Source: a virus. Taken from it: a stretch of 64,000 bases of DNA. Below are positions 806 through 49,705 of this stretch, one piece after another. A model generated the notes under the pieces. That model searched no databases. It saw nothing but the letters and a program-made list of their open reading frames with translations, and was not told the origin of the DNA. The stretch is from the IMG/VR virus record IMGVR_UViG_3300045988_185035. One strand, given 5' to 3'. How positions within the stretch are numbered: position 1 is the first letter of the stretch; each line of letters starts with the position of its first letter. Made by a program: the position numbers and the translations under genes.

Positions 806-975
806 ACGCCGAAAACTCCTTTGCGTTACAGTATTATTTTACCATGAAACATAGCCACTTACAAACATGCAGCCGAAACCGTAACAGAATGTACACAAAT
901 AATTATCTTGAATCCAGTATAGCATAATCTGACGAAATGGCAACAAAAAATGCCGCACACCAAAGTGTACGGCGT

Positions 976-1063
976 TGGCGCTTGTGGTAGGATTTGAACC
1001 TACGAGCAGTTTCCTACTTCCGGTTTTCTGGACCGGCTCCTTCAGCCTCTCGGACACACAAGC
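976..1063 (-). tRNA. tRNA, type II (Ser-like long variable arm); anticodon loop CCAGAAA is atypical (C33; anticodon would read AGA)
   Basis: Hand-folded cloverleaf: acceptor GCTTGTG/CACAAGC, T-arm GTAGG-TTCAAAT-CCTAC, long variable arm, encoded CCA. Confidence 0.55.
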
Positions 1064-1066
1064 AAA

Positions 1067-1154
1067 TGGCGCAGAGGGTGAGGCTCGAACTCACAAGCCG
1101 CTTTCGCGGCGGCAGCTTAGCAAGCTGCTGCACTACCTATTGTGCGACCACTGC
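1067..1154 (-). tRNA. tRNA-Ser(GCT)
   Basis: Anticodon stem GCAGC/GCTGC with loop TTGCTAA; variable-arm hairpin GCCGC-GAAA-GCGGC; T-arm GTGAG-TTCGAGC-CTCAC; one mismatch in the acceptor stem; CCA encoded. Confidence 0.6.
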
Positions 1155-1213
1155 ATAAAGCACTCACATTTTTCTTGCGTATTAAATTTGATAGAACTAA
1201 CGTAGGTGCGTGT

Positions 1214-1290
1214 TGGTGACCCCTGGCAGACTCGAACTGCCGACTCCACATTGAGAGTGTGGTGACTTAGGCCAACTTGTCGAAGGGGCC
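1214..1290 (-). tRNA. tRNA-Glu(CTC)
   Basis: 5' end GGCCCCTTCGAC resembles bacterial tRNA-Glu; anticodon loop CTCTCAA; T-arm GGCAG-TTCGAGT-CTGCC; CCA encoded. Confidence 0.6.
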
Positions 1291-1293
1291 TTA

Positions 1294-1378
1294 TGGTGTG
1301 CCGGACTGGATTCGAACCAGTGAACCGTAACGGAGCGGTTTTACAGACCGTTAGCTTTAACCTCTTGCATACCGACAC
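1294..1378 (-). tRNA. tRNA-Tyr(GTA), type II
   Basis: Anticodon loop CTGTAAA; long variable arm; T-arm ACTGG-TTCGAAT-CCAGT; acceptor stem carries one G.U pair; CCA encoded. Confidence 0.65.
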
Positions 1379-1402
1379 ATAGAATGAGGCATTAAACCTC
1401 AC

Positions 1403-1478
1403 TGGTGCTCCCGGCTGGAGTCGAACCAGCTGCACGCGGCTCTTCAGACCGCTGCTCTACCAGGTGAGCTACAGAAGC
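1403..1478 (-). tRNA. tRNA-Phe(GAA)
   Basis: GCTTCTGTAGCTCA...GAGC start; anticodon loop CTGAAGA; T-arm GCTGG-TTCGACT-CCAGC; CCA encoded. Confidence 0.75.
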
Positions 1479-1479
1479 A

Positions 1480-1556
1480 TGGTGACCGAAATGGGGCTTG
1501 AACCCATAACCTCAAGCGTGAAGGGCTTGCGACTTAACCAATTCGTCAATTCGGCC
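1480..1556 (-). tRNA. tRNA, possibly Glu(TTC); anticodon loop CCTTCAC has C33
   Basis: Acceptor GGCCGAA/TTCGGTC; T-arm ATGGG-TTCAAGC-CCCAT; anticodon stem CAAGC/GCTTG. Confidence 0.5.
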
Positions 1557-1585
1557 ATGTTATGCCGCGCCCGGCGGCTGAGAAT

Positions 1586-1807
1586 TTAAGCGATAACGAG
1601 AATATCGTCAATTTTAGTATCCAACATCGCGGCTAAAATCACGAGGTTGTCGATAGTAGGAAGAGCCGCACCAGCTTGCCACTTAGCGACGGCCTGCGGA
1701 GTAACGCCGAGGGCATCCGCCATATCTTTAACCTTGATGCCCGCCGCTTTGCGGAGCGTTTTGATGTTGGCACCAGTTTGCTGGATGTCTATAGTAGGAA
1801 TCGTCAT
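1586..1807 (-). CDS. XRE-family helix-turn-helix transcriptional regulator (Cro/CI-like, 73 aa)
   Basis: IKTLRKAAGIKVKDMADALGVTPQAVAKWQAG matches the HTH_XRE pattern; the gene sits inside the tRNA array. Confidence 0.8.
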   Translation of the reverse strand: MTIPTIDIQQTGANIKTLRKAAGIKVKDMADALGVTPQAVAKWQAGAALPTIDNLVILAAMLDTKIDDILVIA

Positions 1808-2106
1808 TTGTATGCTGCCTTTCTTTATGCAGGCAACAAAAAAGCTGCCTGCCGAAATCTCGACAAGCAGCTATGACATGCAGTTATCGTTTAGAAGACG
1901 CACCGCATCTGCGCACTGACTGTGTTGGCCTGTCGAGGAGTATGGGAAATAAAGCTGCGTTCATAGGAACTGAACTCAGATTCATAACTATACTCGTTAA
2001 ACGACATAGTGTTGACAGTGTTGCACAGCATATTGGGTATCTCCTTTCTCGTTTCGTTCTGATTCTATTATAGCACGTTTGCATTGAAACGCAATCAACT
2101 TGTGGT

Positions 2107-2289
2107 TTACTTTTTGCTACACCATTTGGCGGTGTCGGGAATGTATATGGCATCTACTCCATCTTGCTTTGGGCTGGAAGGATTTTCCCTGGTTCCCGGC
2201 AACGGGGTTCCTCGTGCTGCCCTGAATTTGGTGCGATAGCCTGCGCCTTGATGCAGTACACGTTCTGAGCCGAGTAATTTGTCGTTCAT
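2107..2289 (-). CDS. small hypothetical protein (60 aa)
   Basis: ATG preceded by GAAAGGAGTATAC; short ORF between tRNA blocks. Confidence 0.4.
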   Translation of the reverse strand: MNDKLLGSERVLHQGAGYRTKFRAARGTPLPGTRENPSSPKQDGVDAIYIPDTAKWCSKK

Positions 2290-2347
2290 GGTATACTCCT
2301 TTCAAAAACAATAATGAGCATGCACCTTTTGAGTACATACTCACCGT

Positions 2348-2423
2348 TGGCAGGGGTAACACGACTCGAACATGCAACACGCGGTTTTGGAGACCGCTGC
2401 TCTACCACTTGAGCTATACCCCT
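2348..2423 (-). tRNA. tRNA-Trp(CCA)
   Basis: AGGGGTATAGCTCAAGTGGTAGAGC; anticodon loop CTCCAAA; acceptor AGGGGTA/TACCCCT; CCA encoded. Confidence 0.7.
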
Positions 2424-2430
2424 ATATAGA

Positions 2431-2505
2431 TGCTTCAGCTGGGAATTGAACCCAGAAGAACTCGGAGCTTAAATCCGCTGCGTCTGCCAGTTGCGCCACT
2501 GAAGC
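2431..2505 (-). tRNA. tRNA, isotype uncertain; loop TTTAAGC would give anticodon TAA (Leu-type) on a short-variable-arm scaffold; no encoded CCA
   Basis: Acceptor GCTTCAG/CTGAAGC; T-arm CTGGG-TTCAATT-CCCAG; D-arm GCGCAACTGGCAGACGC is identical to the tRNA at 2627-2706. Confidence 0.45.
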
Positions 2506-2534
2506 AAAGTTAGCAGTTATCGCATTGCTGGACG

Positions 2535-2621
2535 TGGTGCTCTCGGTGGGAGTCGAACCCACACTCCATGAATGGAACCAGACTCTGAATCTGGCGCGTC
2601 TGCCTATTCCACCACGAGAGC
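2535..2621 (-). tRNA. tRNA-Leu(CAG), type II
   Basis: Anticodon stem CCAGA/TCTGG with loop TTCAGAG; long variable arm; T-arm GTGGG-TTCGACT-CCCAC; CCA encoded. Confidence 0.65.
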
Positions 2622-2626
2622 TTAAA

Positions 2627-2706
2627 TGGTGTCCAAGGCGGGAATCGAACCCGCAGTAAATACTGGTTCCTTAAACCAGCGCGTCTGCCAGTTGCGCCAC
2701 TTGGAC
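2627..2706 (-). tRNA. tRNA, isotype uncertain (loop TTAAGGA, or a 9-nt loop TTTAAGGAA)
   Basis: Acceptor GTCCAAG/CTTGGAC; T-arm GCGGG-TTCGATT-CCCGC; shares its D-arm with the tRNA at 2431-2505; CCA encoded. Confidence 0.45.
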
Positions 2707-2734
2707 ATAGTGGCAGTTGACGTACTGCCGAACG

Positions 2735-2811
2735 TGGTACTCCCCGAGGGATTTGAACCCTCAAAAATGTGCGGTTTGAGCGCACCGTGTCTGCCATTCC
2801 ACCAGAGGAGC
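2735..2811 (-). tRNA. tRNA with anticodon CAA (Leu-type anticodon) but a short variable arm
   Basis: Acceptor GCTCCTC/GGGGAGT with two G.U pairs; anticodon stem GTGCG/CGCAC with loop CTCAAAC; T-arm GAGGG-TTCAAAT-CCCTC. Confidence 0.5.
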
Positions 2812-2814
2812 TTA

Positions 2815-2890
2815 TGGCGGGCGTAGCAGGGCTTGAACCTGCGACACACGGGTTAACGGCCCGCTGCTCTGCCTACTGAGCTATACACCC
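2815..2890 (-). tRNA. tRNA-Asn(GTT); loop CCGTTAA has C33
   Basis: GGGTGTATAGCTCAGTAGGCAGAGC; T-arm GCAGG-TTCAAGC-CCTGC; CCA encoded. Confidence 0.6.
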
Positions 2891-2921
2891 AAAGAAGTGA
2901 CAGATGACGCTCTGCCGGGCG

Positions 2922-2997
2922 TGGTGCGCTCGCGGGAAGTCGAATCCCGAACCTGCCGATTAAAAGTCGGCTACTCTGCCAGTTGAGTTACGAGCAC
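2922..2997 (-). tRNA. tRNA-Lys(TTT)
   Basis: Anticodon stem GCCGA/TCGGC with loop CTTTTAA; T-arm CGGGA-TTCGACT-TCCCG; acceptor GTGCTCG/CGAGCGC. Confidence 0.7.
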
Positions 2998-3076
2998 TTG
3001 TTGCGCATCTACCGTGCCTTGCTTTGGGAGCACTGTCTTTGTGAATCTCACTTCCGATGCGCCTGAAAGTGATAGG

Positions 3077-3150
3077 TGGCCGAGGATGGTCGAGTTGAAC
3101 GACCAATGTCAGAGCCAAAATCTGATGCCTTACCGTTTGGCAAATCCTCG
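3077..3150 (-). tRNA. tRNA-Gln(TTG)
   Basis: Acceptor CGAGGAT/ATCCTCG; anticodon stem TCAGA/TCTGA with loop TTTTGGC; T-arm GGTCG-TTCAACT-CGACC; CCA encoded. Confidence 0.55.
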
Positions 3151-3534
3151 ATGTATACAATATGTATATTTGATACACTTTAATAAGCCCGCCCGGAGCA
3201 TCTTCCGGTGGCATCAAAATGGACTGGATTTGATTTTCTGCATAGAAAAAGCACCCATCAGGCGTTGTGCGTCTGACAGGTGCTCATATCGTGCAGAGTA
3301 CGGAAAACGGCCGATACTCGGATGGTTTTATACTACCATCACTGCACTATGATTCACACAAACAGACAGCACAAAGTTGCCGAGGAGGTACAAATTGCTC
3401 CACAGCTCTTGCCACTTATTCTGTTTGTTCATCATAGTAGCGAACATCGGTGTGTTCTCCTTTCCTAAAATCTCATTATCTTTATTATACACACTGTAAT
3501 ACACAAAGTCAATAGCTAAATTGCAAAAAGTCTA

Positions 3535-3582
3535 AGAAAAAGGCCCGCCGATTTCTCGACGAGCCTCAAGTTCGGGCTTGGC
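3535..3582 (-). terminator. rho-independent terminator downstream of the repeat-lipoprotein gene
   Basis: GC-rich hairpin GCCCG...CGGGC followed by CTTTTTCTT on the minus strand. Confidence 0.45.
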
Positions 3583-3630
3583 TAAATAGCCTGCAACGCT
3601 ATTAGTTATGCCCCAACTGTTCCTGATGGT

Positions 3631-6396
3631 TTAGTCAGCAGCTTCCTCGACAACGATAGCTTCGACTTCGGTCTCTTTGGGCAGAGTGGCATCTTCCTGC
3701 TTGACACCCTCAGAGTCAGACTCTTCAGCATCTTCAGCCGGAACATCAGATTCTGCCGTATCGGCGGGAAGCTCCTCACTTACGGCCGGGGTTTCTGCTT
3801 CCACTGGGGTCTCAACCTCGGCGTCGGAAGGGTTTACACTTGCCAGAGACTGGCTTGCAATGCGGGGGATGGACTCGGTCTTGGTCTCGCCGCAGACAGA
3901 GCAGGTGTGGGTCTTAACGCCCTCATGGTCAGCAGTAGGCTCAACGGTCACAACACCGTTATCCCAACTGTGGTTGTTGGTCTTAGGCAGAGTCTCGATG
4001 AGTTCGGAATAACCGCAGCGGTCGCAGACGTAATCGGTATGACCGTCTTCCTTGCAGGTAGCGGGAGTGGTGTGCAGAGAACCGCTATGGCCCAGTGCGT
4101 TGGTGTAGTTGTCGGTATAAGACTTGGAATCGTCCTCGTTGCACTTATGGTAGGTGTAGCCCTGCTCAGTGCAAGTAGGCTCGACAACAGTCACAGTAAA
4201 GGTGTACTTGGTGGCGAGGATTCCCTCGGTTTTGGTTGCACCACAGACAGTGCAGGTGTAGGTACGGATACCGTTCTCATCGTGGGTCGGCTCTTTGGTA
4301 ACAACGCCCTCGTCCCAAGTATGACCCGTGGCATAAAGGGTATAGGTCATAGTGTGCGTCGGGTCGTTTTTGCAAGTCCGAGTCAGAGAACCATCCTCGG
4401 TGCAAGTTGCCTGCTTGGTGACAACGCCATCATCCCAATCATGGCCGGTGGCAGGAATCGGAGCAGTCTTAGTCTCATTGCAGCCGTCCACGGTGCAGTA
4501 GAAAGTGCGAACGCCGTCTTCCTCGCAAGTCGGCTGCTTGGTCACTTCATTGCGGCCCCAAACGTGGCCCAGCTGAGGGATAGTTTCGGTGTAGGTGTCA
4601 CCGCAGTTCTTGCAGGTGTAGGTGCGGATGCCGCTGGTGGTCTGCGTAGGCTCCTTTGTCACAACGCCTTCATCGTAGTCATGGCCCGTAGCAGGAACTT
4701 CCTCGGTCTTGGTCTTGTTGCAGACGGTGCAGGTAAAGGTCTTCTCACCTGCTTCAGTGCAGGTAGGAGCCTTAGTGATTTCGCCATCGTTCCACTGATG
4801 GTCTTCGGTAACAGGCAGGGTGCTGATGTGCTGGGTGTCGCCGCAGCGCTCGCAGACATTGTCTACGCTGCCCTCGTCTTTGCAGGTGGCAGGGGTCGTG
4901 ACTTCCTTGTAATCGTGGCCCAGAGCGTCGGTATAGCTGTCCTTGTAGGACATGGAGGCATCCTCATTGCACTCGTGCAGGGTGTAACCCTGTTCAGTAC
5001 AGGTGGGCGCAACCACGGTGTCAGTATAGGTGTAGCCCTTGGCAGGGATGACCTCGGTGTAGGTATGGGTCGGGTCATTCTTGCAGGTAAAGGTCTTAAC
5101 GCCATCCTCGGTGCAAGTGGCAGCCGTAGTGATGACACCATCATCCCATTCATGGCCCAGAGCGGCAATTTCCTCGGTCTGAGTCTCGGTGCAGCCGTCG
5201 TTCAGGCACTTGAAAGTCTTGACGCCAGGCTGGTCGCAGGTAGGCTCGGTGGTAACAGTACCCTCGTCCCACTTGTGACCCAGTGCCGGGATAACCTCGG
5301 TCTTGGTCTCACCATCGCGGGAGCAGGTGTAGGTCATAGTACCGTCGGCCGTGCAGGTGGCGGCAACCGTAACAACGCCCTCGTTCCAGTCATGGCCCAG
5401 AGCATCGGTGAAGTCGCGCTTCTCGGTCAGGCTCTCGTCCTGGTCGCAGATGTACACGGTGTAGCCCTGCTCAGTGCAGGTGGGAGCAACCGTCTCACCC
5501 TTGTGCCAGGTCTTCTCCAGAACAGGAATGTCCTCGGTGTAGGAGTCACCGCAAACGGTACAGGTAAAGGTCTTGACGCCCTTCTCATAGATAGTCGGAG
5601 CCTTGGTGACAACACCCTCGTCATAGCTGTGGGGCAGCTTGGCGGTGTAGTCAGCCTTGTAAGTCAGACCCGGAACCTCGTTGCACTCATAGATGGTATA
5701 GCCTTCGCTGGTGCAGGTTGCCGGAACGACTTCCTTGATATGGTAGGTCTTGTTCAGCGCAGGAATCTCTTCGGTACGGGTCTCGCCGCAGTCCTTGCAC
5801 TTGAAGGTCTTGATACCGTTCTCGGTGTAGGTAGCCGCCTTGGTGATGACGCCGTTATCCCAGTTGTGGCCCTTAGGAGCGGTGTAGTTGTCGTTATAGT
5901 TCATGCCGCCCCACTCGTTGCAGATATGCTCGTCATACCCGCCGGTGGTGCAGGAAGCCTCATGGTGGCGAACAACAAAGGTGTAGGTAGGCTCGGCTTT
6001 CTTTTCTTCGGCTGCGGCCGGGGCTGCACTGGCCTGCTGAACGGGTGCCTTGGTCTGAGTCTTGCTGGTGCTGTAGGTCGGCTTCTTGGTAGAAGTGGTG
6101 TTCGCCTGGTCAGAAGAGTTGGAGCTGCTGACAGAAGAATCGGCGGTTTCATCCTTTGCGGTGTCCTGCTTGGTGTCCTCGGTCTTCGTCTCGGAGTCAG
6201 CCGTGGCGGCAGAACTGGCCGTATCCTCGCTCGTGGCGGGAGCCTCGGTCGGAGCCGGTTCAGACTGGCTGGTAGTGGATTCAGAAGATGCAACATTGCT
6301 TTCGTTTTTAGCGCCACAGCCGGTAGCGGAAACCGCCACTGCTGCTGCCATCGCAAAAGCCATGATACTCTTCGCAAGTTTGGTTTTCTTACGCAT
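3631..6396 (-). CDS. surface lipoprotein with about 18 tandem Cys-rich repeats (921 aa)
   Basis: ATG at 6396 preceded by AAGGAGAG; signal peptide with lipobox (ATGC); Ser/Thr/Ala-rich linker; two alternating 35-40-aa repeat types (VxPTCTEQGYTxYxCNED..., GHxWDxGVVTKxPT...TFTCxxCGxTxTE); acidic C-terminus. Confidence 0.8.
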   Translation of the reverse strand: MRKKTKLAKSIMAFAMAAAVAVSATGCGAKNESNVASSESTTSQSEPAPTEAPATSEDTASSAATADSETKTEDTKQDTAKDETADSSVSSSNSSDQANTTSTKKPTYSTSKTQTKAPVQQASAAPAAAEEKKAEPTYTFVVRHHEASCTTGGYDEHICNEWGGMNYNDNYTAPKGHNWDNGVITKAATYTENGIKTFKCKDCGETRTEEIPALNKTYHIKEVVPATCTSEGYTIYECNEVPGLTYKADYTAKLPHSYDEGVVTKAPTIYEKGVKTFTCTVCGDSYTEDIPVLEKTWHKGETVAPTCTEQGYTVYICDQDESLTEKRDFTDALGHDWNEGVVTVAATCTADGTMTYTCSRDGETKTEVIPALGHKWDEGTVTTEPTCDQPGVKTFKCLNDGCTETQTEEIAALGHEWDDGVITTAATCTEDGVKTFTCKNDPTHTYTEVIPAKGYTYTDTVVAPTCTEQGYTLHECNEDASMSYKDSYTDALGHDYKEVTTPATCKDEGSVDNVCERCGDTQHISTLPVTEDHQWNDGEITKAPTCTEAGEKTFTCTVCNKTKTEEVPATGHDYDEGVVTKEPTQTTSGIRTYTCKNCGDTYTETIPQLGHVWGRNEVTKQPTCEEDGVRTFYCTVDGCNETKTAPIPATGHDWDDGVVTKQATCTEDGSLTRTCKNDPTHTMTYTLYATGHTWDEGVVTKEPTHDENGIRTYTCTVCGATKTEGILATKYTFTVTVVEPTCTEQGYTYHKCNEDDSKSYTDNYTNALGHSGSLHTTPATCKEDGHTDYVCDRCGYSELIETLPKTNNHSWDNGVVTVEPTADHEGVKTHTCSVCGETKTESIPRIASQSLASVNPSDAEVETPVEAETPAVSEELPADTAESDVPAEDAEESDSEGVKQEDATLPKETEVEAIVVEEAAD

Positions 6397-6536
6397 GGTT
6401 TTACTCTCCTTAGCGTGTTTTAAGGGTTGCTTTTCGAGCAGAAAACAACTTATTTTTAACGTGCGTTCGTGCTTTCCGTTCACTGACTACATTATACCAA
6501 AATCCGGCATCAATTGAAATTTTGTGCCCCAATGCT

Positions 6537-7271
6537 TTACAAACTGTTCATATTTGATGAGCATTCAGGCTTCCAGGTGAGAACCGTATTCAGCACAGAT
6601 TCAAGCTCCTTTCCCTCATACAGCGAGAGCTTATTAAGAGCATGACGCATAAGAGTATCGTAATTCGTAACACTCATATCGAGTGGTATGGTGATGGTAA
6701 CAGTGCCAGAAAGCGGAGTGAGGATGATAGGAGTGTTGTTTCTGAACTTTTTCTCATCTTTCGGCACCCAGCCGTTTGTCAGAAGATAATCATACAAAGC
6801 ATACGGATTCACAGCCGTCACAGAAACACGACCATCCAGCATCTTGTAAGCCCGCAAATACTTGGTTTCTCGAAGCAAGTCTTTCTGGGTCAGCGGATAT
6901 GGCAGCCTGGTAAGGTCCATGTTGCTGCGTAAATCACTCAGTTTGACTTTAGTAGCAACCGGATTCTGACGGATATGCCAGATGTATTCGGCGTAGCTCA
7001 TTCCCTTCCGGCGGGTCAACACATTTACCGCGTCTGCCACCTCTTTCGGGAATTCTGCCCGGATGTCAGCCATTGTAATGGTTGTATCCTCGACAGTGTC
7101 GTGCAGGTACGCAACAGCTTCGGCTACCGGGTCATCGTTCACCCCCTTAGCAACCACCGAGACATGTGCGATAAAGTAGTCTTCCCCTGCTTTGTCCTTC
7201 TGCCCCGCATGGGCTTCTACCGCCCAGCGTTTGGCTTTTTCGACCATCTTGGTCAGTTCTAATTCGGTCAT
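6537..7271 (-). CDS. HD-domain (p)ppGpp hydrolase-like protein (SpoT/Mesh1-type small alarmone hydrolase) with a C-terminal extension
   Basis: AHAGQKDKAGEDYFIAHV...AVAYLHDTVEDT matches the SpoT/RelA HD hydrolase motif; start MTELEL with a GAGGAG ribosome-binding site. Confidence 0.75.
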   Translation of the reverse strand: MTELELTKMVEKAKRWAVEAHAGQKDKAGEDYFIAHVSVVAKGVNDDPVAEAVAYLHDTVEDTTITMADIRAEFPKEVADAVNVLTRRKGMSYAEYIWHIRQNPVATKVKLSDLRSNMDLTRLPYPLTQKDLLRETKYLRAYKMLDGRVSVTAVNPYALYDYLLTNGWVPKDEKKFRNNTPIILTPLSGTVTITIPLDMSVTNYDTLMRHALNKLSLYEGKELESVLNTVLTWKPECSSNMNSL

Positions 7272-7321
7272 ACAAAACTCCTCATAAAACAAGAAAAGCC
7301 GGGATTGACCCGGCAAAATCA

Positions 7322-7410
7322 TGGCGGACGGGGTGGGATTCGAACCCACGGACACTTGCGGCATCGCTGGTTTTCAAGACCAGTTCCATAGGCCACTCGG
7401 ACACCCGACC
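7322..7410 (-). tRNA. tRNA-Ser(TGA), type II
   Basis: GGTCGGGTGTCCGAGTGG...; anticodon stem CTGGT/ACCAG with loop CTTGAAA; long variable arm; T-arm GTGGG-TTCGAAT-CCCAC. Confidence 0.7.
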
Positions 7411-7445
7411 ATGTAGTAAGATGTTAGCCGCAGTTGTCCCCCTGC

Positions 7446-7560
7446 GTTGCCCGTCGTCCGCCCCGTGGAGGCCATCTTTATGGACGACTGACGGAGTTTT
7501 GCTCCGTCTATACCGCAGCCGCTTTCGCCACACGGTATGATTATTACGGCTTGCTTGCGC
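7446..7560. ncRNA. structured repeat unit A (~100 nt): GTTGCCC box, hairpin 1 with CGTGGAGG core loop, hairpins 2 and 3
   Basis: Stem pairs GTCGTCC/GGACGAC, GACGGAG/CTCCGTC and ATACCG/CGGTAT; homologous to the unit at 7713-7830 with compensatory stem changes. Confidence 0.45.
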
Positions 7561-7712
7561 ATCCTGTTCTATCGGCGTGTCCGCCGTAGCGCGGCAAGAT
7601 GAACAATGCTCGTGGTGTAGTTTTACCCGAAAAGGAGACTTCGGAGGCCCCGCGCTATTTCATCATGGAACTTAACTAACGACACAAGAGTATTAGCCAC
7701 AGATGTATCTGT

Positions 7713-7830
7713 GTTGCCCGTCATCCACCTCGTGGAGGTTGCTCTTTTGGATGACTGACGAGGGTGTGCGCCTCGCCAATGCCGCAGCCGGTTTCGCCAC
7801 TCGGCACTGCATTTTTCCGGCTTGACGATG
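7713..7830. ncRNA. structured repeat unit B (tandem paralog of 7446-7560)
   Basis: GTCATCC/GGATGAC, GACGAGG/CCTCGCC and TGCCG/CGGCA stems enclose the same conserved loops (cgtggagg; ccgcagccgSTTTCGCCAC). Confidence 0.45.
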
Positions 7831-7979
7831 CCCTGTGTAAATCGCTTGTCCAAGCGGCGCGGACAAGGCATTCGTCTTCGTGGTCATAGTTAAGGAGTTC
7901 CGCGCAAATGACCGTACTGCGAATCAACAACAGTACAATGCACGCCCAGAGACAGCCGCAGGAAGCGGCATGTTGCTGG

Positions 7980-8055
7980 TGGTGGAAATAGAGGGATTCG
8001 AACCCTCGACCCCCTGCTTGCAAAGCAGGTGCTCTCCCAGCTGAGCTATATCCCC
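7980..8055 (-). tRNA. tRNA-Ala(TGC)
   Basis: GGGGATATAGCTCAGCTGGGAGAGC with G3.U70; anticodon loop TTTGCAA; T-arm GAGGG-TTCGAAT-CCCTC. Confidence 0.75.
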
Positions 8056-8085
8056 ATGATGGCGGGGCATCCCCGCCGGACAGTT

Positions 8086-8469
8086 TTAGGTGTACTGGAA
8101 GTCGCCGTACTGCTTGACCTCGCGCTCCAGGTGGAGCGGAATGGTCTTGGTGCTTCGCTGCGTGATGTCGCTACGTGCCACCAGAGTCTCGCTTACGCCT
8201 GCCGCCTGAAGAACTTCAAACAGATTGGACGGTCCTGTACCAGCATAGCCCGCCGTCAGTCCGTTGACACGCATTGTAAACCCATGCAGACGCGGTGCCA
8301 GGCCGGAGATGAAGTCGAGCTCAACAACGACCTCGTCACTCTTATCGTTCACACGTTTGACTGAGATAGCACGGATGTTCTGGCTTCCGAAGGTCTCAAT
8401 CAGTTTCTTGGCTGCCGCTGCGGTTTCAATCGTGGATGTACCTTCTACATTGATAATTGCCTGCTCCAT
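8086..8469 (-). CDS. hypothetical protein (about 127 aa)
   Basis: Internal ATG (MEQAIINVEG...) preceded by AAAGGAGATGATTCCA; the longer N-terminal ORF extension is Arg-rich and lacks a ribosome-binding site. Confidence 0.5.
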   Translation of the reverse strand: MEQAIINVEGTSTIETAAAAKKLIETFGSQNIRAISVKRVNDKSDEVVVELDFISGLAPRLHGFTMRVNGLTAGYAGTGPSNLFEVLQAAGVSETLVARSDITQRSTKTIPLHLEREVKQYGDFQYT

Positions 8470-8670
8470 TGGAATCATCTCCTTTCTACTTAGAGTTGTC
8501 ATGCGCTGTAGCAGATAACGCTCTGCCATGCGGGGCTTTACGTTGCCCATTCGTGTTCGGTTCCGGCTACGACGACTTCCGTAAGGACTTAGCCAACCGC
8601 CAACAGGTGCATGCCCCCGTTGGAAGCTTCTTGGGCGGATTCTCAAAGAGCGCGTCGCCCAATCGGACCG

Positions 8671-8746
8671 TGGAGCTTAGTGGCAGATTCGAACTGCCCG
8701 CCTGCACATTACGAGTGTGCCGCTCTGCCTAATGAGCTAACCAAGC
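8671..8746 (-). tRNA. tRNA-Thr(CGT)
   Basis: GCTTGGTTAGCTCATTAGGCAGAGC; anticodon stem GCACA/TGTGC with loop CTCGTAA; T-arm GGCAG-TTCGAAT-CTGCC. Confidence 0.7.
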
Positions 8747-9124
8747 ATGGCAGGATGTTTTATGCTTGTTATCATCCCAAATCAGGGCAGCCAACCCTGC
8801 ATCAAGCACCATCCGGCAGCCACGCCGATGGATTCTGTATTGTACCCTCTCCGCCGTTTTCCGGTCTCATTCGCGACTGATACTGAGACTTTCGGATACT
8901 CTCAGGCACAGCACCTGTTTGCCGATTCTTTTAGAGGCTGTCCATTGGCATTCGGACAGCGGACCACAAGTGGACCATGCTCGCTTTATTTAGTGTCGTG
9001 CGTACGGTGACAGCGACGGTGGAGCGGGCAGCGGGATTCATTTCTATTCACGCCACCCATGTGGGCAGCGACAATTGCTATACCCCGCGTGGTGGGTCGC
9101 GTCTGGCTTTCGCTTTTGCGGCCT

Positions 9125-9319
9125 TTATTTTGCTTCGCTGTTTATGTACCCAAACCAGCAGCTTTCGCAGCCAGCGAACCCCGCGCACCCTTCCTCGTAC
9201 ACGTCATTCCATGGCGGACATCTGAAATTCTTTTCAAAGACTTTTACCATGTTCTTTTTGATATCTTCCACGGGTCCGCTGAACTTCATTCCTTTTGTCA
9301 ATTCTTCAAAAACCGTCAT
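9125..9319 (-). CDS. small Cys-rich protein (64 aa)
   Basis: AGGAGGGAAAGAAA-ATG; Cys-rich C-terminal region (CPPW...C...C..C) suggests a zinc-ribbon-like fold; lone CDS within the tRNA array. Confidence 0.55.
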   Translation of the reverse strand: MTVFEELTKGMKFSGPVEDIKKNMVKVFEKNFRCPPWNDVYEEGCAGFAGCESCWFGYINSEAK

Positions 9320-9368
9320 TTTTCTTTCCCTCCTTCTCGCCGCGTGGAGGCTACCAGCGTAGGGATAT

Positions 9369-9443
9369 TGGAGGAGTATATCGGGGTCGAACCGACGTTA
9401 TCTGCTTGGAGGGCAGAGGTATTAACCGTTATACGAATACTCC
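9369..9443 (-). tRNA. tRNA-Gly(TCC)
   Basis: Acceptor GGAGTAT/ATACTCC; anticodon stem TCTGC/GCAGA with loop CCTCCAA; T-arm GTCGG-TTCGACC-CCGAT; CCA encoded. Confidence 0.6.
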
Positions 9444-10604
9444 ACAAGATTGCGGGTGAACCCTCATTTAGCCCCGCCATGATGTTCGTTTAGGAGGTAG
9501 TCGGCCCCGAACGCCATCTTTACACCACCTGACAATCTTGCGAATCTCATCGCTGACTATGCGTGAGAATCCAAGAAAGCGCTTGGGTGTTGGTCAACTT
9601 CAAATCTTAGAGCCCTACCGTTACTTCCCTGTCAATTCGGGCGAACGGTTTTCGATGGGCTGAGTTTGTAAGACTGCGGCTCACTTACCAGCTGCCGTGC
9701 AGCAGTCTCGCCTGTAACGGCTGTGTCGCGTCTGGCTGCGCCCCGGCTTTACGGGGATGCTCGTACGTCTGCATGCTTGATGGGGCGGGATTTGTTGTTT
9801 CCGAACCGTAGTTCGAGAGGAAGCACTCGCCCACACAACTTCCTGGCTTTTAGGGATACCGCTCACGTCGGGAGCCGTGATGCGATTCCCAAGATTGAAA
9901 ACTTAGCCATGTCGCGGGTATTGACCGCAACGATGTTGCCCACTGCTCACCACGAGGAGGTTGTTTTCTGAGCAGTAACGCGGATTGTGTGAACCAGTCC
10001 GCGCAAGCAGCTTCCGCGTATTCCCTGCTGCTCGAGGGGGTTCGTTGAGCGTCCGCTGACGCCGTACCCCGGAGGGAACGTCCAAAGGCGTTTTGCAGTA
10101 CGGAAAAGTTCGGTTTAGAGCCATGAACTGGGCCAAGGACTGCTTACCTTGTCTGGTTTGCCCTTCAGATTGGGTTGAGAGCATTCGTCAGCGACTGTAG
10201 AAATCGTTGTCCACCACCCGCCGCGTGGAGGCTGTCTCATGGGTGGCTGGGCTCGTCGGATGTTTCCGGCGTGCCCAGATAGGCGCTACCTATCGTGTCG
10301 TTCTAAGGCGGGAGCTGCCCGCCATCAGGTTTACCTGTGCATCGGATTATCCCTTTCACTTATGCGGCCTGTCGGACGTAATTAGTGCATAGGCGTTCTC
10401 CTTTGTTCAGATTTTGACATCGGACGCGGTAATTACTGCATCGGAGTGCCCTCCCTGTTAGATTTCGACCTGTTTAACGTCCGTGTCAGGACGTGTTCTG
10501 GATGGGTGGTGTCACACCACCGTGTTCCGTGCTTACGCGTCGCACCTGTACTCCACTATTACGCCTTATCGCGCGATTGACGTGTTCCCTTGTACTACAT
10601 CCAG

Positions 10605-10681
10605 TGGCGACTCGTGCCGGTTTCGAACCGGCGACCTCCAGCGTGACAGGCTGGCGTTCTAACCGTCTGAACTAACGAGCC
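10605..10681 (-). tRNA. tRNA-Asp(GTC)
   Basis: GGCTCGTTAGTTCAGACGGTTAGAAC; anticodon loop CTGTCAC; T-arm GCCGG-TTCGAAA-CCGGC. Confidence 0.7.
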
Positions 10682-10715
10682 ATATATGGCCGATTTAACG
10701 TCGCGGCCGAGACGA

Positions 10716-10790
10716 TGGATACGGGGATGGGACTTGAACCCACAACCACCAGCGTATGAGGCTGGAAAGCTACCATTGCTATACCCCGTG
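10716..10790 (-). tRNA. tRNA-Met(CAT), possibly initiator-like
   Basis: Anticodon stem CCAGC/GCTGG with loop CTCATAC; T-arm GTGGG-TTCAAGT-CCCAT; position 1-72 is an unpaired C.A. Confidence 0.55.
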
Positions 10791-11050
10791 TCAATAACAA
10801 GACATTGGCCGCAAGAACCTTCAAAACTTGCGTTGTCCATCTCTCGCCACGCGGAGGCTGTCTTGTGAGGGATTCTCGGAGATTGCGCAAGGATGTGTAA
10901 AACTATACTGGTGTAGTATGATGTGCTGCAAGCAGCTACAATGCACATTCTCCGAGGTTGTTATTACCGTCTATCAAGTGAGGGTATGTAGCACTATAGT
11001 AGTTGTGATGTGTGTCGGGATGACACTTACAACACTTGATATTCGGTATA

Positions 11051-11126
11051 TGGCGGGTCGTACAGGGCTCGAACCTGTGACATCTTGATTAACAGTCAAG
11101 CGCTCTGCCGACTGAGCTAACGACCC
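11051..11126 (-). tRNA. tRNA-Asn(GTT)
   Basis: GGGTCGTTAGCTCAGTCGGCAGAGC; anticodon loop CTGTTAA; T-arm ACAGG-TTCGAGC-CCTGT. Confidence 0.7.
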
Positions 11127-11296
11127 AGAAATAAGACATTTGCCACGGGGAGCTCAATACCCGTGTTACCGTCACCGCCGCGAGGAGGCTGTCTTATGGT
11201 GACATAGCCCGCAAGATGTGTGTATAGCATCGTATCAAGAAGTTACGATTCATCAAGCGGGATTTCGGATTTCAACGGAGGAACGATGAAAACCAA

Positions 11297-11372
11297 TGGA
11301 GCTTCCGGTGGGACTCGAACCCACAACCTACTGATTACAAGACAGTTGCTCCGCCTGTTGAGCCACAGAAGC
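11297..11372 (-). tRNA. tRNA-Thr(TGT)
   Basis: GCTTCTGTGGCTCAACAGGCGGAGC; anticodon loop CTTGTAA; T-arm GTGGG-TTCGAGT-CCCAC. Confidence 0.7.
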
Positions 11373-11467
11373 ATGGTAGTCGCAAGGAGTAAAACCTTGA
11401 CGACAAATGTATTATTTAGTATATGCGGTTCGCACGATTCGGCAATACAGATTATTTGAAGCACATT

Positions 11468-12139
11468 CTATATTTTGCGAATCTGCAAGTCACTGACATC
11501 TGCAATGTCTCGGTTTTCTTTCGTGACATCCTTTACCGCGCGTTTCTTTGACCAGAGAACACTCAGGACGCGATTGCGAAGGTTGTCGTCCTCGATAGTG
11601 GATGTCACTTTTACGATTTCTGACTCGCTCAAGTAGACTGTTCCACCCTGCTGAATCATGGTCGGATACCCGTTATCACTTCTCAGGACCTTTTTATCAA
11701 GGCTATCGTAGGCGTATATCGCGTCGATAAGAAGTTCGGCCGCGATTCCGTCCAGCTGTGCTTCCGTAATGCCCTGGAATACGAGCCAACGGTGCATGAA
11801 CGAATCATCCGGGATGCTGTCGCTGTAAAGAGAGAACAGCGGAGACACCAATTTGTTGCTCGAATAGCGCTCATGCTCTTCATCGACATTCAGGTTGTCC
11901 TGCCAAAGCTTCAGCATCAAGCCATCGCCGTAGTAGACGAACGTGTCGTGAAAGAACCCGGACGAGCACACTTTGATGTGGTCGATGTTTGCTACTTCCT
12001 CACGGCGGCAGAGCACAAAGCGAGTGCCTTCACTCTTGCCGTAGGTCTCATCGTCCCACTTGACCGTGACTCGTTCCAGCACAAAGCTGTCGTTGAGGAG
12101 CTTCAGAACTTTATTGATGGGAAATACTCGCCAGTCCAT
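11468..12139 (-). CDS. hypothetical protein
   Basis: Start MDWRVFP with GGAGGGAAACCTG-ATG; TGATG stop/start overlap with the upstream gene. Confidence 0.6.
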   Translation of the reverse strand: MDWRVFPINKVLKLLNDSFVLERVTVKWDDETYGKSEGTRFVLCRREEVANIDHIKVCSSGFFHDTFVYYGDGLMLKLWQDNLNVDEEHERYSSNKLVSPLFSLYSDSIPDDSFMHRWLVFQGITEAQLDGIAAELLIDAIYAYDSLDKKVLRSDNGYPTMIQQGGTVYLSESEIVKVTSTIEDDNLRNRVLSVLWSKKRAVKDVTKENRDIADVSDLQIRKI

Positions 12140-19152: not shown

Positions 19153-20310
19153 TTACGGCTTGCAATACCCGCAAGGTGTATAGCCCTGCTCGATTAGGTC
19201 ATCGCGGGAACCTGTATAGTCTTTGCGGTTTGCATCGCTCATTTGAGCTACGGCGGAGCAGTCAGGCTTATGAAATTTCATAGAGTTTGTGTTCAGGACA
19301 TAGGTACTGACCGTCGTATTCTTTTGCTGTGACTCCTCGACCTCGACTGTATCGGTGGTAGTGCTTCCTGCCGCCTGGTGATATTCGCCATAGGTGAAAG
19401 AAACGTCTTTACCATCTGAGGTGCAGTAGATGTCTCCCATCTCGTCAGTTCTGAAAACCTCAATGTCTTTGCTCTGGAGCTTTGCCAAAGTGATGTCGTG
19501 TGGATGACCATAGCTGTTGTCCTTGCCACAGGAAATAACAGCATAGGCTGGATTCACTGTGTCGAGGAACGCTTCGGATGTGGAGGTTCGAGAACCATGA
19601 TGCCCTACCTTCAGAACAGTAGATTGGATGTCTTGTCCAGACTGTAGGATAACATCTTCGGCAGGCTCTTCTGCATCACCCGTAAACAAGAATGAGGTTT
19701 CTCCATATACGATGCGTAGGACAATGGAGGTATTGTTGGTATCATCCGGCACTGAGTTCACGGCGATAACAGTCACTTCGGCATCGCCAAGGGAGAATGT
19801 ATCCCCTACCGACGGAATCGTAAGGCCGTTGCCTCTTTCTTCCGCTCGCTGCTTGAAGTTCCGAAAAGCTTTACTGTCGTACTCTGTGACAGGGCAATAC
19901 GTGACATCAGCCGTCACGGCTTCGAATGCACCGGAAAGACCTCCGATATGGTCTTCATGGGCGTGCGTGCCAACAACATAATCCAGATGTCCGTCTGTCT
20001 CACGTTCCAGAACAGAATATACGAGGTCAGAATCATCAACATTGCCACCGTCAATGAGCATCGAATGCCCATCACAGGTAACAAGAGCAGAGTCCGCCTG
20101 CCCCACATCAATGAAGTGGATAGTAAAGCTGCCGTCTTCCGTTACGCCAGCCGTCTGCTCGCTGTCAGAGACAGGACTTTCTGAGACGACCCCGGATACA
20201 GGAAGACTACCCGAATCAATCGGGGTCTGACCGCAGCCTGCGAAGCTGAGGGTGAAGAGTGCCGCAATCGCTGCCGCTGCTCTCCGCAAGAATGTGTTTT
20301 TGCTTTGCAT
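19153..20310 (-). CDS. MBL-fold metallo-hydrolase lipoprotein (ComEC/Rec2-type beta-lactamase domain) with C-terminal Ada-like Cys-rich zinc-binding motif
   Basis: Lipobox LSFAGC; THAHEDHIGG and later HHGSR motifs; C-terminal KFHKPDC...GYTPCGYCKP. Confidence 0.75.
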   Translation of the reverse strand: MQSKNTFLRRAAAAIAALFTLSFAGCGQTPIDSGSLPVSGVVSESPVSDSEQTAGVTEDGSFTIHFIDVGQADSALVTCDGHSMLIDGGNVDDSDLVYSVLERETDGHLDYVVGTHAHEDHIGGLSGAFEAVTADVTYCPVTEYDSKAFRNFKQRAEERGNGLTIPSVGDTFSLGDAEVTVIAVNSVPDDTNNTSIVLRIVYGETSFLFTGDAEEPAEDVILQSGQDIQSTVLKVGHHGSRTSTSEAFLDTVNPAYAVISCGKDNSYGHPHDITLAKLQSKDIEVFRTDEMGDIYCTSDGKDVSFTYGEYHQAAGSTTTDTVEVEESQQKNTTVSTYVLNTNSMKFHKPDCSAVAQMSDANRKDYTGSRDDLIEQGYTPCGYCKP

Positions 20311-20708: not shown

Positions 20709-21482
20709 CTAAGCAGACAGCGTGGCTCTGACGACATAGCGTTGGTTTGTGGTTTGGTAGTATCCGAACGGATAGCAGGTATACATCACGAGCCGGTCGG
20801 TGGTGTCCGAAAGGTCCACAAGAATGGTTCCATCATCGGCCACCACAGTGCTTGCATCTTCCGTTACGGTTCCGGGCCTAGCGGAATCTATCGTATATAC
20901 GTATTGTCCGTAGTCTGTAGTGACCACAAATTCGTCTCCAATACTCACGTATTGAAGCAAAGCCAAAGTGCTGTCGTTATGAGAGCAAAGAAGATGGCAA
21001 CCACCGTACCCGACCTGATAGGAGCCTGTGTACTGATATACACCGCTGCGGCTGTCGAGGAGAGCTTGGTCATCGCCCCAGATAAGGGAAGCGTTGATAC
21101 CTACGCTGCTGCATGAGACTGTCCCGTAGGAAGCGCCATACGTGGCAGGCACCACATCACCCCATACGCTGGTCGTGAGTGGAACCGAAGTATCTGTAGG
21201 GACCGGTGTTGGTGCTTCTGTCGGTTCAGGCGTCTGTGTAGGAGTAGGCTCTGGTGCAGCTGTTGGTTTCGACAAAGGAGCATGAGGTGTGGGTTCCGGG
21301 ATGCTGTCGGTGCTTAGATAAATCGCATCATTCGCTGTCTCAGCCGTTGCCGCTGATTCCGTTGTGCTGGCAAAAGAGTCTGGTGGTACTGATACGGGAG
21401 TAGATGCACTACTCGCGCAAGCTGTGGCAAAGGTCAGTACGCCTACTGCCACAGCAGTTATCACTGCTTTTGTCCGTCTCAT
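20709..21482 (-). CDS. lipoprotein with Ser/Thr/Pro-rich linker and a C-terminal sortase-like transpeptidase domain
   Basis: Lipobox FATAC; C-terminal CHLLCSHND ... LVMYTCYP ... RYVVRA resembles the sortase His / TLxTC / Arg arrangement; low-confidence fold assignment. Confidence 0.5.
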   Translation of the reverse strand: MRRTKAVITAVAVGVLTFATACASSASTPVSVPPDSFASTTESAATAETANDAIYLSTDSIPEPTPHAPLSKPTAAPEPTPTQTPEPTEAPTPVPTDTSVPLTTSVWGDVVPATYGASYGTVSCSSVGINASLIWGDDQALLDSRSGVYQYTGSYQVGYGGCHLLCSHNDSTLALLQYVSIGDEFVVTTDYGQYVYTIDSARPGTVTEDASTVVADDGTILVDLSDTTDRLVMYTCYPFGYYQTTNQRYVVRATLSA

Positions 21483-47048: not shown

Positions 47049-47120
47049 AAATATCCTCCAAAATATGTTATTTGTTTTCGGTTTCCCGATGGTTTGTTAG
47101 AAAGCAAAGTTGTCTGCCAG

Positions 47121-47179
47121 CCGTAGCTGTTGCCCGCTGCCCGCCTCGTGGAGGCCCCTTTGCATAAAGGCAGCTGCGG
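47121..47179. promoter_or_regulatory. hairpin-embedded CGTGGAGGC core element (copy g)
   Basis: CCGTAGCTG-ttgcccgctgcccgcctcgtggaggcccctttgcataaagg-CAGCTGCGG. Confidence 0.45.
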
Positions 47180-49608: not shown

Positions 49609-49661
49609 GGCTTTCTCCCCTTCTTTTTCGTTCTGAAGACTATTTGCCAGGAGCCTTTCCC

Positions 49662-49705
49662 GTTGCCCGCCGCTTGCCCCGTGGAGGCTGTCTTCGTTGA
49701 GCGGC
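49662..49705. promoter_or_regulatory. hairpin-embedded CGTGGAGGCTGTCTT element (copy h)
   Basis: GTTGCCC-GCCGCT-tgccccgtggaggctgtcttcgttg-AGCGGC. Confidence 0.45.

Follow-up and report, generated by a model that had tools for sequence, protein, structure and literature searches.

Atypical tRNAs and ribozymes in the two tRNA arrays of a large gut phage

Clusters of about 20-35 co-oriented tRNA genes with non-canonical loops are known from large virulent phages such as T4, T5 and the cluster C1 mycobacteriophages. Two arrays of this kind were investigated in a stretch of 64,000 nucleotides (nt) from the IMG/VR virus record IMGVR_UViG_3300045988_185035, termed the window in its full length, at 976-3150 (cluster 1) and 7322-11372 (cluster 2). 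The source is a large gut phage with the standard code. For the known clusters, as for this phage, the tRNAs are considered to make the supply of translation independent of the host. It was furthermore proposed that phage tRNAs escape anticodon nucleases via mutations in their loops (van den Berg et al. 2023, PMC10264068). Prokaryotic Schlafen tRNases exist, and human SLFN11 is described as specific for type-II tRNAs.

Three published general descriptions are of importance for these arrays. A long variable arm was reported to occur in tRNA-Leu throughout organisms and organelles, with animal mitochondria as the exception, in which the arm-less tRNA-Leu is still recognised by LeuRS (2023 review, PMC9976931). 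For tRNAs with ANN anticodons in four-codon boxes absence from bacteriophages was stated (2026 preprint, 10.64898/2026.05.15.725136). Theta ribozymes, which are minimal versions of the HDV-like ribozymes (HDV, hepatitis delta virus), were described for the 3′ ends of tRNAs in Caudoviricetes of the gut (Kienbeck et al. 2024, PMC10879173).

Here, the genes, structures, conservation, covariation and ribozyme positions of both arrays are reported. We consider it rather probable that they form an island of working tRNA genes, the odd features of which are inherited and selected, for the supply of translation and the escape from host nucleases, with ribozymes as punctuation in cluster 2. The phage tRNAs would keep phage translation supplied. 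Because their loops and variable arms differ from those of host tRNAs, they would be poor substrates for host tRNA-cutting nucleases or modification enzymes.

Inventory and atypical features of the tRNAs

Exactly 22 tRNA genes were called by ARAGORN, all on the minus strand, 14 in cluster 1 and eight in cluster 2 (Table 1). The Rfam model RF00005 found all 22 at 46-72 bits compared with a gathering score of 29. Calls and loop registers are in agreement between these two independent methods, ARAGORN and Rfam/Infernal, and the two minus-strand arrays listed in an earlier note on this DNA are confirmed. With relaxed settings (-ps85) and in intron mode ARAGORN gave antisense artefacts only and no further minus-strand tRNA. 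The earlier note allowed for a different folding of the atypical tRNAs by another program; the Infernal alignments give the same loop register.

Relatives were searched with the protein of the open reading frame (ORF) of 950 amino acids (aa) between the two clusters, and 53 syntenic IMG/VR loci were found. In its best segment this protein is 74-93% identical in six loci, in five of these 92-93%. The remaining loci form a diverged clade with about 41-65%, mostly about 53%, amino-acid identity. The tRNA arrays are syntenic in these relatives. Contigs with the marker reach up to 153 kb, others with the same arrays 183-247 kb, and phage-type genes are present in the window, in line with the former assignment of the co-oriented arrays to a large phage. 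The atypical tRNA features are kept in more than 100 related IMG/VR contigs, with compensatory changes in the stems. When 900-12000 was compared with 50,697 phage records by Megablast, the sole match was one of 48 nt in a tRNA, and no close relative was found among cultured phages. In four loci (L013, L016, L036, L050) the Ser-UGA orthologue has the 6-nt anticodon loop CUUAAA, corresponding to a deletion of G35, and for a 76-nt gene at the position of Ala in L100, L123, L147 and L199 the called anticodon has 2 nt. Inactivation of the copies or errors of the assembly could account for these cases.

C at position 33 of the anticodon loop was found in four of the 22 tRNAs (Ser-AGA, Glu-UUC, Asn-GUU copy 1 and Gly-UCC), U33 in the other 18. 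For the tRNAs at 976, 1480 and 2815 C33 had been pointed out before, and the Infernal alignment independently gives the same register. The fourth, Gly-UCC at 9369, had been overlooked; the former list of oddities also lacked A34, which occurs in Ser-AGA and Leu-AAG, and G37, which occurs in Phe-GAA and Leu-UAA. The loop CCAGAAA of Ser-AGA is present in 41 of 41 loci and, pooled with the loci from pattern searches, in 30/30 unique sequences. Its acceptor, anticodon and T stems vary among the orthologues by compensatory changes.

Among 385 unique tRNAs of the family, position 33 was U in 309 and C in 71, with A and G in none. The restriction to pyrimidines at a normally invariant site indicates constraint and not decay. 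Within the loci C33 was detected for Met (43/53), Glu-UUC (14/42), Gly (7/50) and the second Asn copy (6/58). The larger pool adds Ser-GCU and Thr-UGU, with separate origins of C33 in seven isoacceptor groups. Among near-identical orthologues of Glu-UUC, Gly and Met, position 33 is polymorphic for U and C. The pattern of Ser-AGA with C33 had more than 120 matches in IMG/VR and two in 185,579 species genomes, one of which lies beside the genes of a terminase and of a major head protein in a metagenome-assembled genome (MAG) of Faecousia. Ser-AGA with U33 was found in 21 viral contigs; therefore, a coupling of C33 to A34 was rejected. A control pattern with the anticodon GGA and the same stems gave no match and is an uninformative control. 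BLAST of the Ser-AGA tRNA against phages resulted in one weak match only.

The second group of atypical tRNAs comprises Leu-UAA, Leu-AAG and Leu-CAA at 2431, 2627 and 2735. As the earlier note had suggested, their variable regions are short (6-7 nt with ARAGORN and Infernal), and Leu-CAG has a stem-loop arm. The anticodon of the tRNA at 2627, formerly given with a question mark, is AAG. The identical D arm reported for two of them is that of 2431 and 2627, with 20 nt, GTGGCGCAACTGGCAGACGC. Short-arm Leu-CAA was found in 46 of the 53 loci, and over all loci of the family 16 CAA, 12 UAA and 4 AAG unique short-arm sequences were obtained, with compensated acceptor and T stems; the T stem is also compensated among the Leu-AAG orthologues. 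The first 27 nt at the 5′ end of Leu-CAA show 89% identity to the type-II Leu-CAG of the phage, and in the alignment of both tRNAs the length difference sits exactly at the variable arm. A73, A14, A15-U48, G18G19, A20a and a D stem of 3 base pairs (bp) were found by inspection in all three short-arm Leu tRNAs. For E. coli LeuRS it was reported that neither the long arm nor the anticodon is required and that variants without arm are still charged (PMC9976931). As this identity set is kept and arm-less variants are still charged, leucine identity is the best reading, and the short-arm tRNAs should still be charged with leucine. The isotype switching formerly considered is not supported, as the identity set is kept and the 5′ part of Leu-CAA resembles Leu-CAG. 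Leu tRNAs would be able to lose the arm because LeuRS does not need it. SerRS is known to depend on the long variable arm, and thus Ser tRNAs would not be able to lose it.

Short-arm Leu tRNAs were also detected outside the family. At least 120 matches were obtained with the pattern of short-arm Leu-CAA, and 113 with its long-arm version. The listed short-arm matches include unrelated phages with other acceptor stems and with short-arm Leu-UAG or Leu-UAA. The unrelated IMG/VR phages L202, L205, L210, L211, L219, L222 and L229 encode tRNA-Leu (CAA, UAG, UAA) of 76-78 nt with A73 on different scaffolds. Some unrelated phages with short-arm tRNA-Leu also have a long-arm Leu. BLAST gave no match for Leu-CAA against phages and none for Leu-AAG against E. 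coli genomes.

Several points weigh against the favoured reading of a selected tRNA island. Among 1046 unique tRNAs of about 127 diverse metagenomic-phage loci, position 33 was U in 979, C in 60, A in 5 and G in 2. With 5.7% in these other phages C33 is not special here, and the same holds for short Leu tRNAs, as 34/209 Leu tRNAs of this survey (about 16%) are 72-80 nt long. A cultured Ruegeria phage has three non-U33 tRNAs out of 31. According to the survey, this phage and the pattern searches, C33 and the short arm of Leu are general features in the tRNAs of metagenomic phages; C33 is enriched in the window (4/22), not unique. The gamma-toxin anticodon nuclease of K. lactis is indifferent to U33C (PMC2275089). 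The requirements of LeuRS are known from E. coli, which is not the likely host; the host is probably a Bacillota bacterium. Codon usage in the window has no obvious match to the tRNA set. For Leu-UAA, most alleles have a mismatch at 27-43 or 31-39, and the anticodon UAU was found on its scaffold in five loci (L064, L129, L149 and two others) with three distinct sequences. Furthermore, we infer the expression and charging of the tRNAs, the cleavage by the ribozymes and the benefit against host defences.

These frequencies are in accordance with tolerated drift, the alternative that survives best. C33, G37, short Leu arms and A34 would then be without benefit, constraint would be relaxed by host tRNAs as back-up, variants with slight harm would persist and some copies would be decaying. 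The polymorphism of position 33 in near-identical orthologues, the tRNA relics in the spacers at 9020-9095 and 7660-7683, the four loci with a 6-nt loop in Ser-UGA and the stem mismatches, absent CCA and UAA/UAU polymorphism of Leu-UAA also fit drift. However, Ser-AGA keeps C33 in all 30 unique sequences despite compensatory stem changes, and a purine at position 33 is found in none of the 385 family tRNAs. Short-arm Leu-CAA persists across clades of about 53% identity, and on unrelated scaffolds in other phages, and all 22 tRNAs are well above the gathering score. Drift as explanation of the whole set is therefore possible, but we regard it as doubtful. Pseudo-tRNAs, as discussed in the earlier note, are not supported for most of the atypical genes, which are kept where the neighbour protein is about 53% identical, have compensated stems and carry only U or C at position 33. 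Solely for Leu-UAA the suspicion stays.

Leu-UAA is the one doubtful case; it may be a decaying gene or have a non-decoding role. It diverges fast between close relatives, and its acceptor and T stems are nonetheless compensated. In total 12 unique UAA alleles and three UAU variants were found. The UAU variant reads the Ile codon AUA and, if charged by LeuRS, would mistranslate AUA as Leu. As a non-decoder the RNA could be a signal of RNase P/RNase Z for the processing of the adjacent tRNA-Trp, or it could act as a decoy towards an enzyme of the host that targets tRNAs. It lies 7 nt upstream of tRNA-Trp in the window and always 5-9 nt across the relatives, and this constant spacing is consistent with such a role. 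As formerly noted, the tRNA at 2431 lacks an encoded CCA (3′ end ...GAAGC-A-UCUAUAU); CCA is missing in 10/12 UAA alleles and 3/3 UAU variants. Moreover, the anticodon is UAA or UAU while the cloverleaf is kept by compensated stems, and UUA makes up only 5% of the Leu codons in the window. However, tRNA genes without CCA are normal in Bacillota, as substrates of RNase Z. Two alleles with a perfect anticodon stem end with ...AUCCA, and the UAA anticodon and G37 are kept in 12/15 unique alleles. Hence, we consider a non-decoding role unlikely. In the favoured reading of a working gene, the CCA-less Leu-UAA would be finished by RNase Z and a CCA-adding enzyme.

The use of these tRNAs as recoding tools, either as stop or frameshift suppressors as the earlier note had proposed or by non-cognate charging of e.g. 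short-arm Leu tRNAs, is highly improbable and already largely refuted by the sequence: the anticodons CUA, UUA and UCA do not occur among the 22 tRNAs, all 22 have loops of 7 nt and none of at least 8 nt (ARAGORN, Infernal), uninterrupted minus-strand ORFs in code 11 cover about 47.5 kb of the 64-kb window with ordinary codon and stop usage (TAA 41, TGA 20, TAG 5), and the Leu identity set is retained in the short-arm Leu tRNAs, which originate from the scaffold of a type-II Leu tRNA. This outweighs that TAG is the rarest stop (5/66), that an anticodon loop of 9 nt, with 31 and 39 unpaired, can be drawn for most alleles of Leu-UAA, that UAU occurs on a Leu scaffold in five loci, and that a link to amber suppressor tRNAs is frequent for the theta ribozymes of gut phages (PMC10879173).

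The C1xA72 mismatch described for Met-CAU is present and kept in most orthologues. A11:U24 was found in addition (D stem UAGC/GCUU), and both features occur in both clades. Three consecutive G:C pairs in the anticodon stem are absent (A29-U41, G30-C40, C31-G39).

HDV-like ribozymes and a structured RNA in cluster 2

Six HDV-like ribozymes (A-F) were identified in cluster 2 on the gene strand with the Rfam model RF02682; they had been overlooked before. Compared with the gathering score of 44, three copies in the window are above and five below (29-43 bits). All eight window ribozymes have the catalytic C in J4/2. In ribozymes A-F J4/2 reads GGC(U/C/A)AA or is equivalent to it, and the strands of P2 are complementary; thus the nested double-pseudoknot core (P1, P3/L3, P1.1, P4 and J4/2) is present. 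P1 of ribozyme B is GUCGUCC/GGACGAC in the window and GCCAUCU/AGAUGGC in the other clade. The two copies outside the cluster lie in short gaps between protein genes and would cut polycistronic mRNAs. A seventh candidate in cluster 2, next to tRNA-Gly, was rejected, as it has the P3/L3 motif only, a poor P1 and no P1.1, P4, J4/2 or Rfam match; it is listed in Table 1 as a relic.

The loci were scanned with a regular expression for the P3/L3 core combined with P1 pairing, and the gene strand gave 227 matches, the opposite strand none. Ribozyme positions were surveyed in 175 loci, some of which are from the same contigs. They contain 25 distinct, fully complementary P1 helices; 131 ribozymes lie directly 5′ of a tRNA and 47 directly 3′. 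All 47 tRNAs with a ribozyme adjoining their 3′ end lack CCA. The ribozyme position upstream of Asn is kept in 50 related loci and that upstream of Ser in 49, and P1 of the Asn ribozyme covaries. For the window ribozymes the nearest upstream tRNA 3′ ends are 93-357 nt away, beyond the ±5 nt used for theta ribozymes. The tRNAs downstream of ribozymes, Asn, Met and Ser-UGA, all encode CCA. In the diverged clade tRNA-Thr(UGU) has no CCA and a ribozyme at distance 0 from its 3′ end (42 loci); in the window clade its CCA is encoded and no ribozyme adjoins. These two states look like a natural swap between ribozyme-dependent and conventional 3′-end formation.

HDV-like ribozymes cleave at their own 5′ end. 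A ribozyme upstream of a tRNA would thus remain part of the pre-tRNA until RNase P acts. In the proposed mechanism each ribozyme would cut at its own 5′ end and then form a structured 5′ leader that stays joined to the RNA downstream, either a tRNA (Asn, Met, Ser-UGA) or the structured RNA of about 441 nt behind ribozyme C; RNase P would then free the 5′ end of the tRNA. Ribozymes and tRNAs would act as punctuation marks on one long precursor.

The 441-nt RNA shows 78% nucleotide identity between the clades, and its central part of about 170 nt is near-invariant. No conserved ORF was found in this stretch. With RNAalifold 133 pairs were predicted for the full alignment including the ribozyme, and in 23 of these both sides are changed. 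Outside the ribozyme (120 pairs) 99.2% of the cells are paired, compared with about 40% with slid partners, and 19 pairs change on both sides compared with 0-3 in the slid controls, in an alignment of two deep lineages only. No Rfam family was matched at E<=5, and by eye neither RNase P RNA nor tmRNA nor a group I intron fits.

Between the clades an identity of 76-94% was obtained for the spacers of cluster 2, compared with about 53% for the neighbour protein. The conserved spacers may be further structured RNAs or accessory elements of the ribozymes. A hairpin of 7 bp followed by A lies directly before the predicted cleavage sites of ribozymes A and B.

Phage genes and transcription units

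PHROG matches in the window include a tail protein, a DNA polymerase, a helicase and several HNH endonucleases; a Y-family polymerase is also encoded. The RNA-repair enzyme RlaP fits a pressure from RNA-damaging defences. The HD protein at 6540-7364 was rejected as a CCA enzyme, being a hydrolase of the RelA/SpoT type, and the MBL-fold protein at 19156-20310 was rejected as RNase Z, being ComEC-like. For the 950-aa ORF no match was detected in Pfam, PHROG, NCBIfam and PDB sequences; an 838-aa ORF (3907-6423, plus strand) shadows it in antisense. Host clues are restricted to the sortase gene, which is a hint of a Gram-positive host, and to the contig of a distantly related phage that was binned in a MAG of Faecousia.

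Promoter-like and terminator-like sites bracket three minus-strand units. The unit from 11.46 to 7.30 kb would comprise eight widely spaced tRNAs, six ribozymes, the 441-nt RNA, two small ORFs and relics. Eight tightly packed tRNAs would be transcribed in the unit from 3.5 to 2.3 kb and six, also tightly packed, in that from 1.6 to 0.95 kb.

Table 1 Features of the window (positions refer to the whole stretch)
Feature	Position	Strand	Characteristics and evidence
Terminator-like hairpin	952..973	-	after tRNA-Ser(AGA)
tRNA-Ser(AGA)	976..1063	-	type II; loop CCAGAAA (C33, A34); ARAGORN; Rfam 50 bits, same register
tRNA-Ser(GCU)	1067..1154	-	type II; ARAGORN, Infernal
tRNA-Glu(CUC)	1214..1290	-	ARAGORN, Infernal
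tRNA-Tyr(GUA)	1294..1378	-	type II; ARAGORN, Infernal
tRNA-Phe(GAA)	1403..1478	-	G37; ARAGORN, Infernal
tRNA-Glu(UUC)	1480..1556	-	loop CCUUCAC (C33); ARAGORN, Infernal
Terminator-like site	2313-2345	-	after Trp
tRNA-Trp(CCA)	2348..2423	-	ARAGORN
tRNA-Leu(UAA)	2431..2505	-	short variable region; G37; G27.A43 mismatch; no encoded CCA; ARAGORN, Infernal 46.6 bits
tRNA-Leu(CAG)	2535..2621	-	canonical type II; ARAGORN, Infernal
tRNA-Leu(AAG)	2627..2706	-	7-nt variable region; A34; ARAGORN, Infernal
tRNA-Leu(CAA)	2735..2811	-	6-nt variable region; ARAGORN, Infernal
tRNA-Asn(GUU) copy 1	2815..2890	-	loop CCGUUAA (C33); ARAGORN, Infernal
tRNA-Lys(UUU)	2922..2997	-	ARAGORN
tRNA-Gln(UUG)	3077..3150	-	ARAGORN
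Promoter-like site	3484..3512	-	TTGACT-17-TATAAT, 11/12; upstream of Gln...Trp block
950-aa ORF	3631-6483	-	between the two tRNA clusters; kept in all relatives
RelA/SpoT-type HD hydrolase	6540-7364	-	immediately downstream of cluster 2
Terminator-like hairpin	7298-7314	-	after Ser-UGA
tRNA-Ser(UGA)	7322..7410	-	type II; last gene of cluster-2 operon; ARAGORN
HDV-like ribozyme B	7415..7488	-	RF02682 45.3 bits; ends 4 nt upstream of tRNA-Ser(UGA)
267-nt tandem duplication	7415-7830	-	module of upstream element + ribozyme
Decayed Asn-like tRNA 5′ remnant	~7660-7683	-	directly after ribozyme A
HDV-like ribozyme A	7684..7755	-	RF02682 51.2 bits; repeats D5, D7, D8
Conserved spacers	7756-7979, 10248-10472	-	compensated hairpins
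tRNA-Ala(UGC)	7980..8055	-	ARAGORN
tRNA-Thr(CGU)	8671..8746	-	ARAGORN
Chimeric tRNA relic	~9020-9095	-	Met-like 5′ half + 3′ end of the diverged clade's tRNA-Gly
Ribozyme-core relic	9324..9368	-	just 3′ of tRNA-Gly; no GGGCAAC; repeat family D1; overlaps ribosome-binding site of 64-aa ORF
tRNA-Gly(UCC)	9369..9443	-	loop CCUCCAA (C33); ARAGORN, Rfam
Structured non-coding RNA, ~441 nt	9454..9894	-	between ribozyme C and tRNA-Gly
HDV-like ribozyme C	9894..9976	-	RF02682 44.6 bits
HDV-like ribozyme D	10181..10247	-	RF02682 34.4 bits, E=4e-4; kept in both clades
tRNA-Asp(GUC)	10605..10681	-	ARAGORN, Rfam
tRNA-Met(CAU)	10716..10790	-	C1xA72; ARAGORN, Rfam
HDV-like ribozyme E	10798..10873	-	RF02682 36.7 bits, E=1e-4; ends 7 nt upstream of tRNA-Met
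tRNA-Asn(GUU) copy 2	11051..11126	-	ARAGORN, Rfam
HDV-like ribozyme F	11132..11203	-	RF02682 29 bits, E=7e-3; ends 5 nt upstream of tRNA-Asn
tRNA-Thr(UGU)	11297..11372	-	CCA encoded; ARAGORN
Two promoter-like sites	11418..11493	-	upstream of cluster 2; 9/12 each, consensus match only
Sortase	20712-21482	-	
RlaP RNA-repair nucleotidyltransferase	28222-29226	-	
Further HDV-like ribozymes	47104-47174, 49634-49705	-	RF02682 34.3, 43.0 bits; far from tRNAs

Comparison with known systems

Compared with the phages of van den Berg et al. (PMC10264068), C33, A34 (Ser-AGA, Leu-AAG) and arm-less Leu tRNAs are added here; a text search of that paper gave no mention of position 33 or the variable region. 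The loss of the arm would strip the mark of type-II tRNAs, and SLFN11 is a precedent for a nuclease with specificity for this type. A reading that goes further, with arm-less Leu, C33 and A34 as systematic counter-defence designs and cluster 2 as a new kind of RNA operon, in which ribozymes as 5′ leaders and tRNAs as 3′ signals excise tRNAs and the RNA of about 441 nt, is put forward as a speculation that we hold to be less probable than its opposite. The natural pairs of C33 and U33 tRNAs and of arm-less and armed Leu tRNAs are test objects for the counter-defence hypothesis.

The short-arm Leu tRNAs share the Leu anticodon, A73 and the absence of a long arm with the class-I tRNA-Leu of animal mitochondria. 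In contrast to the mitochondrial tRNAs, the phage versions keep a D arm of the bacterial type (3-bp stem, G18G19, A20a) and a canonical T loop. A34 in four-codon boxes is known from eukaryotic Ser(AGA) and Leu(AAG) with I34 and from Leu(AAG) of Lactobacillales, which is edited by TadA. For phages the preprint cited above states the absence of such tRNAs, whereas Ser-AGA was found with C33 in more than 120 viral contigs and with U33 in 21. On the level of the sequence, many phage contigs from the gut and the environment are at odds with both published general statements. If true, an exception for phages is needed to the rule of the long arm in tRNA-Leu and to the claimed absence of ANN tRNAs. 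For annotation it is of relevance that isotype models could flag such tRNAs as pseudogenes or mismatches. With the bacterial initiator tRNA-fMet, the phage tRNA-Met has C1xA72 and A11:U24 in common; it differs by the absence of the three G:C pairs and by U or C instead of A as discriminator.

With theta ribozymes the HDV-like fold, the catalytic C in J4/2, the origin from gut phages, the location on the gene strand and the occurrence in tRNA regions are shared. A theta-like context at a tRNA 3′ end was found in the diverged clade, at the CCA-less tRNA-Thr(UGU). Three of the window ribozymes precede tRNAs by 4-7 nt and none touches a tRNA 3′ end. Furthermore, the adjoining window tRNAs encode CCA, which is usually missing in the tRNAs associated with theta ribozymes, neither suppressor tRNAs nor recoding were found and P4 is a full helix of 5-8 bp. 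The position in a 5′ leader is not mentioned in PMC10879173 according to a text search, and no other paper on it was found in a literature search. RF02682, the covariance model that matches the phage copies best, represents the ribozyme of the bacterium Faecalibacterium prausnitzii. Compared with this ribozyme, eight copies were found in one phage window, six of them within a tRNA operon, together with a candidate for a new large structured RNA. Phage tRNA arrays and tRNA-linked HDV-like ribozymes are already known; the ribozyme before the tRNA is the reverse of the theta arrangement. As this 5′ position is conserved with covariation, the ribozymes may process phage RNA beyond the removal of 3′ trailers.

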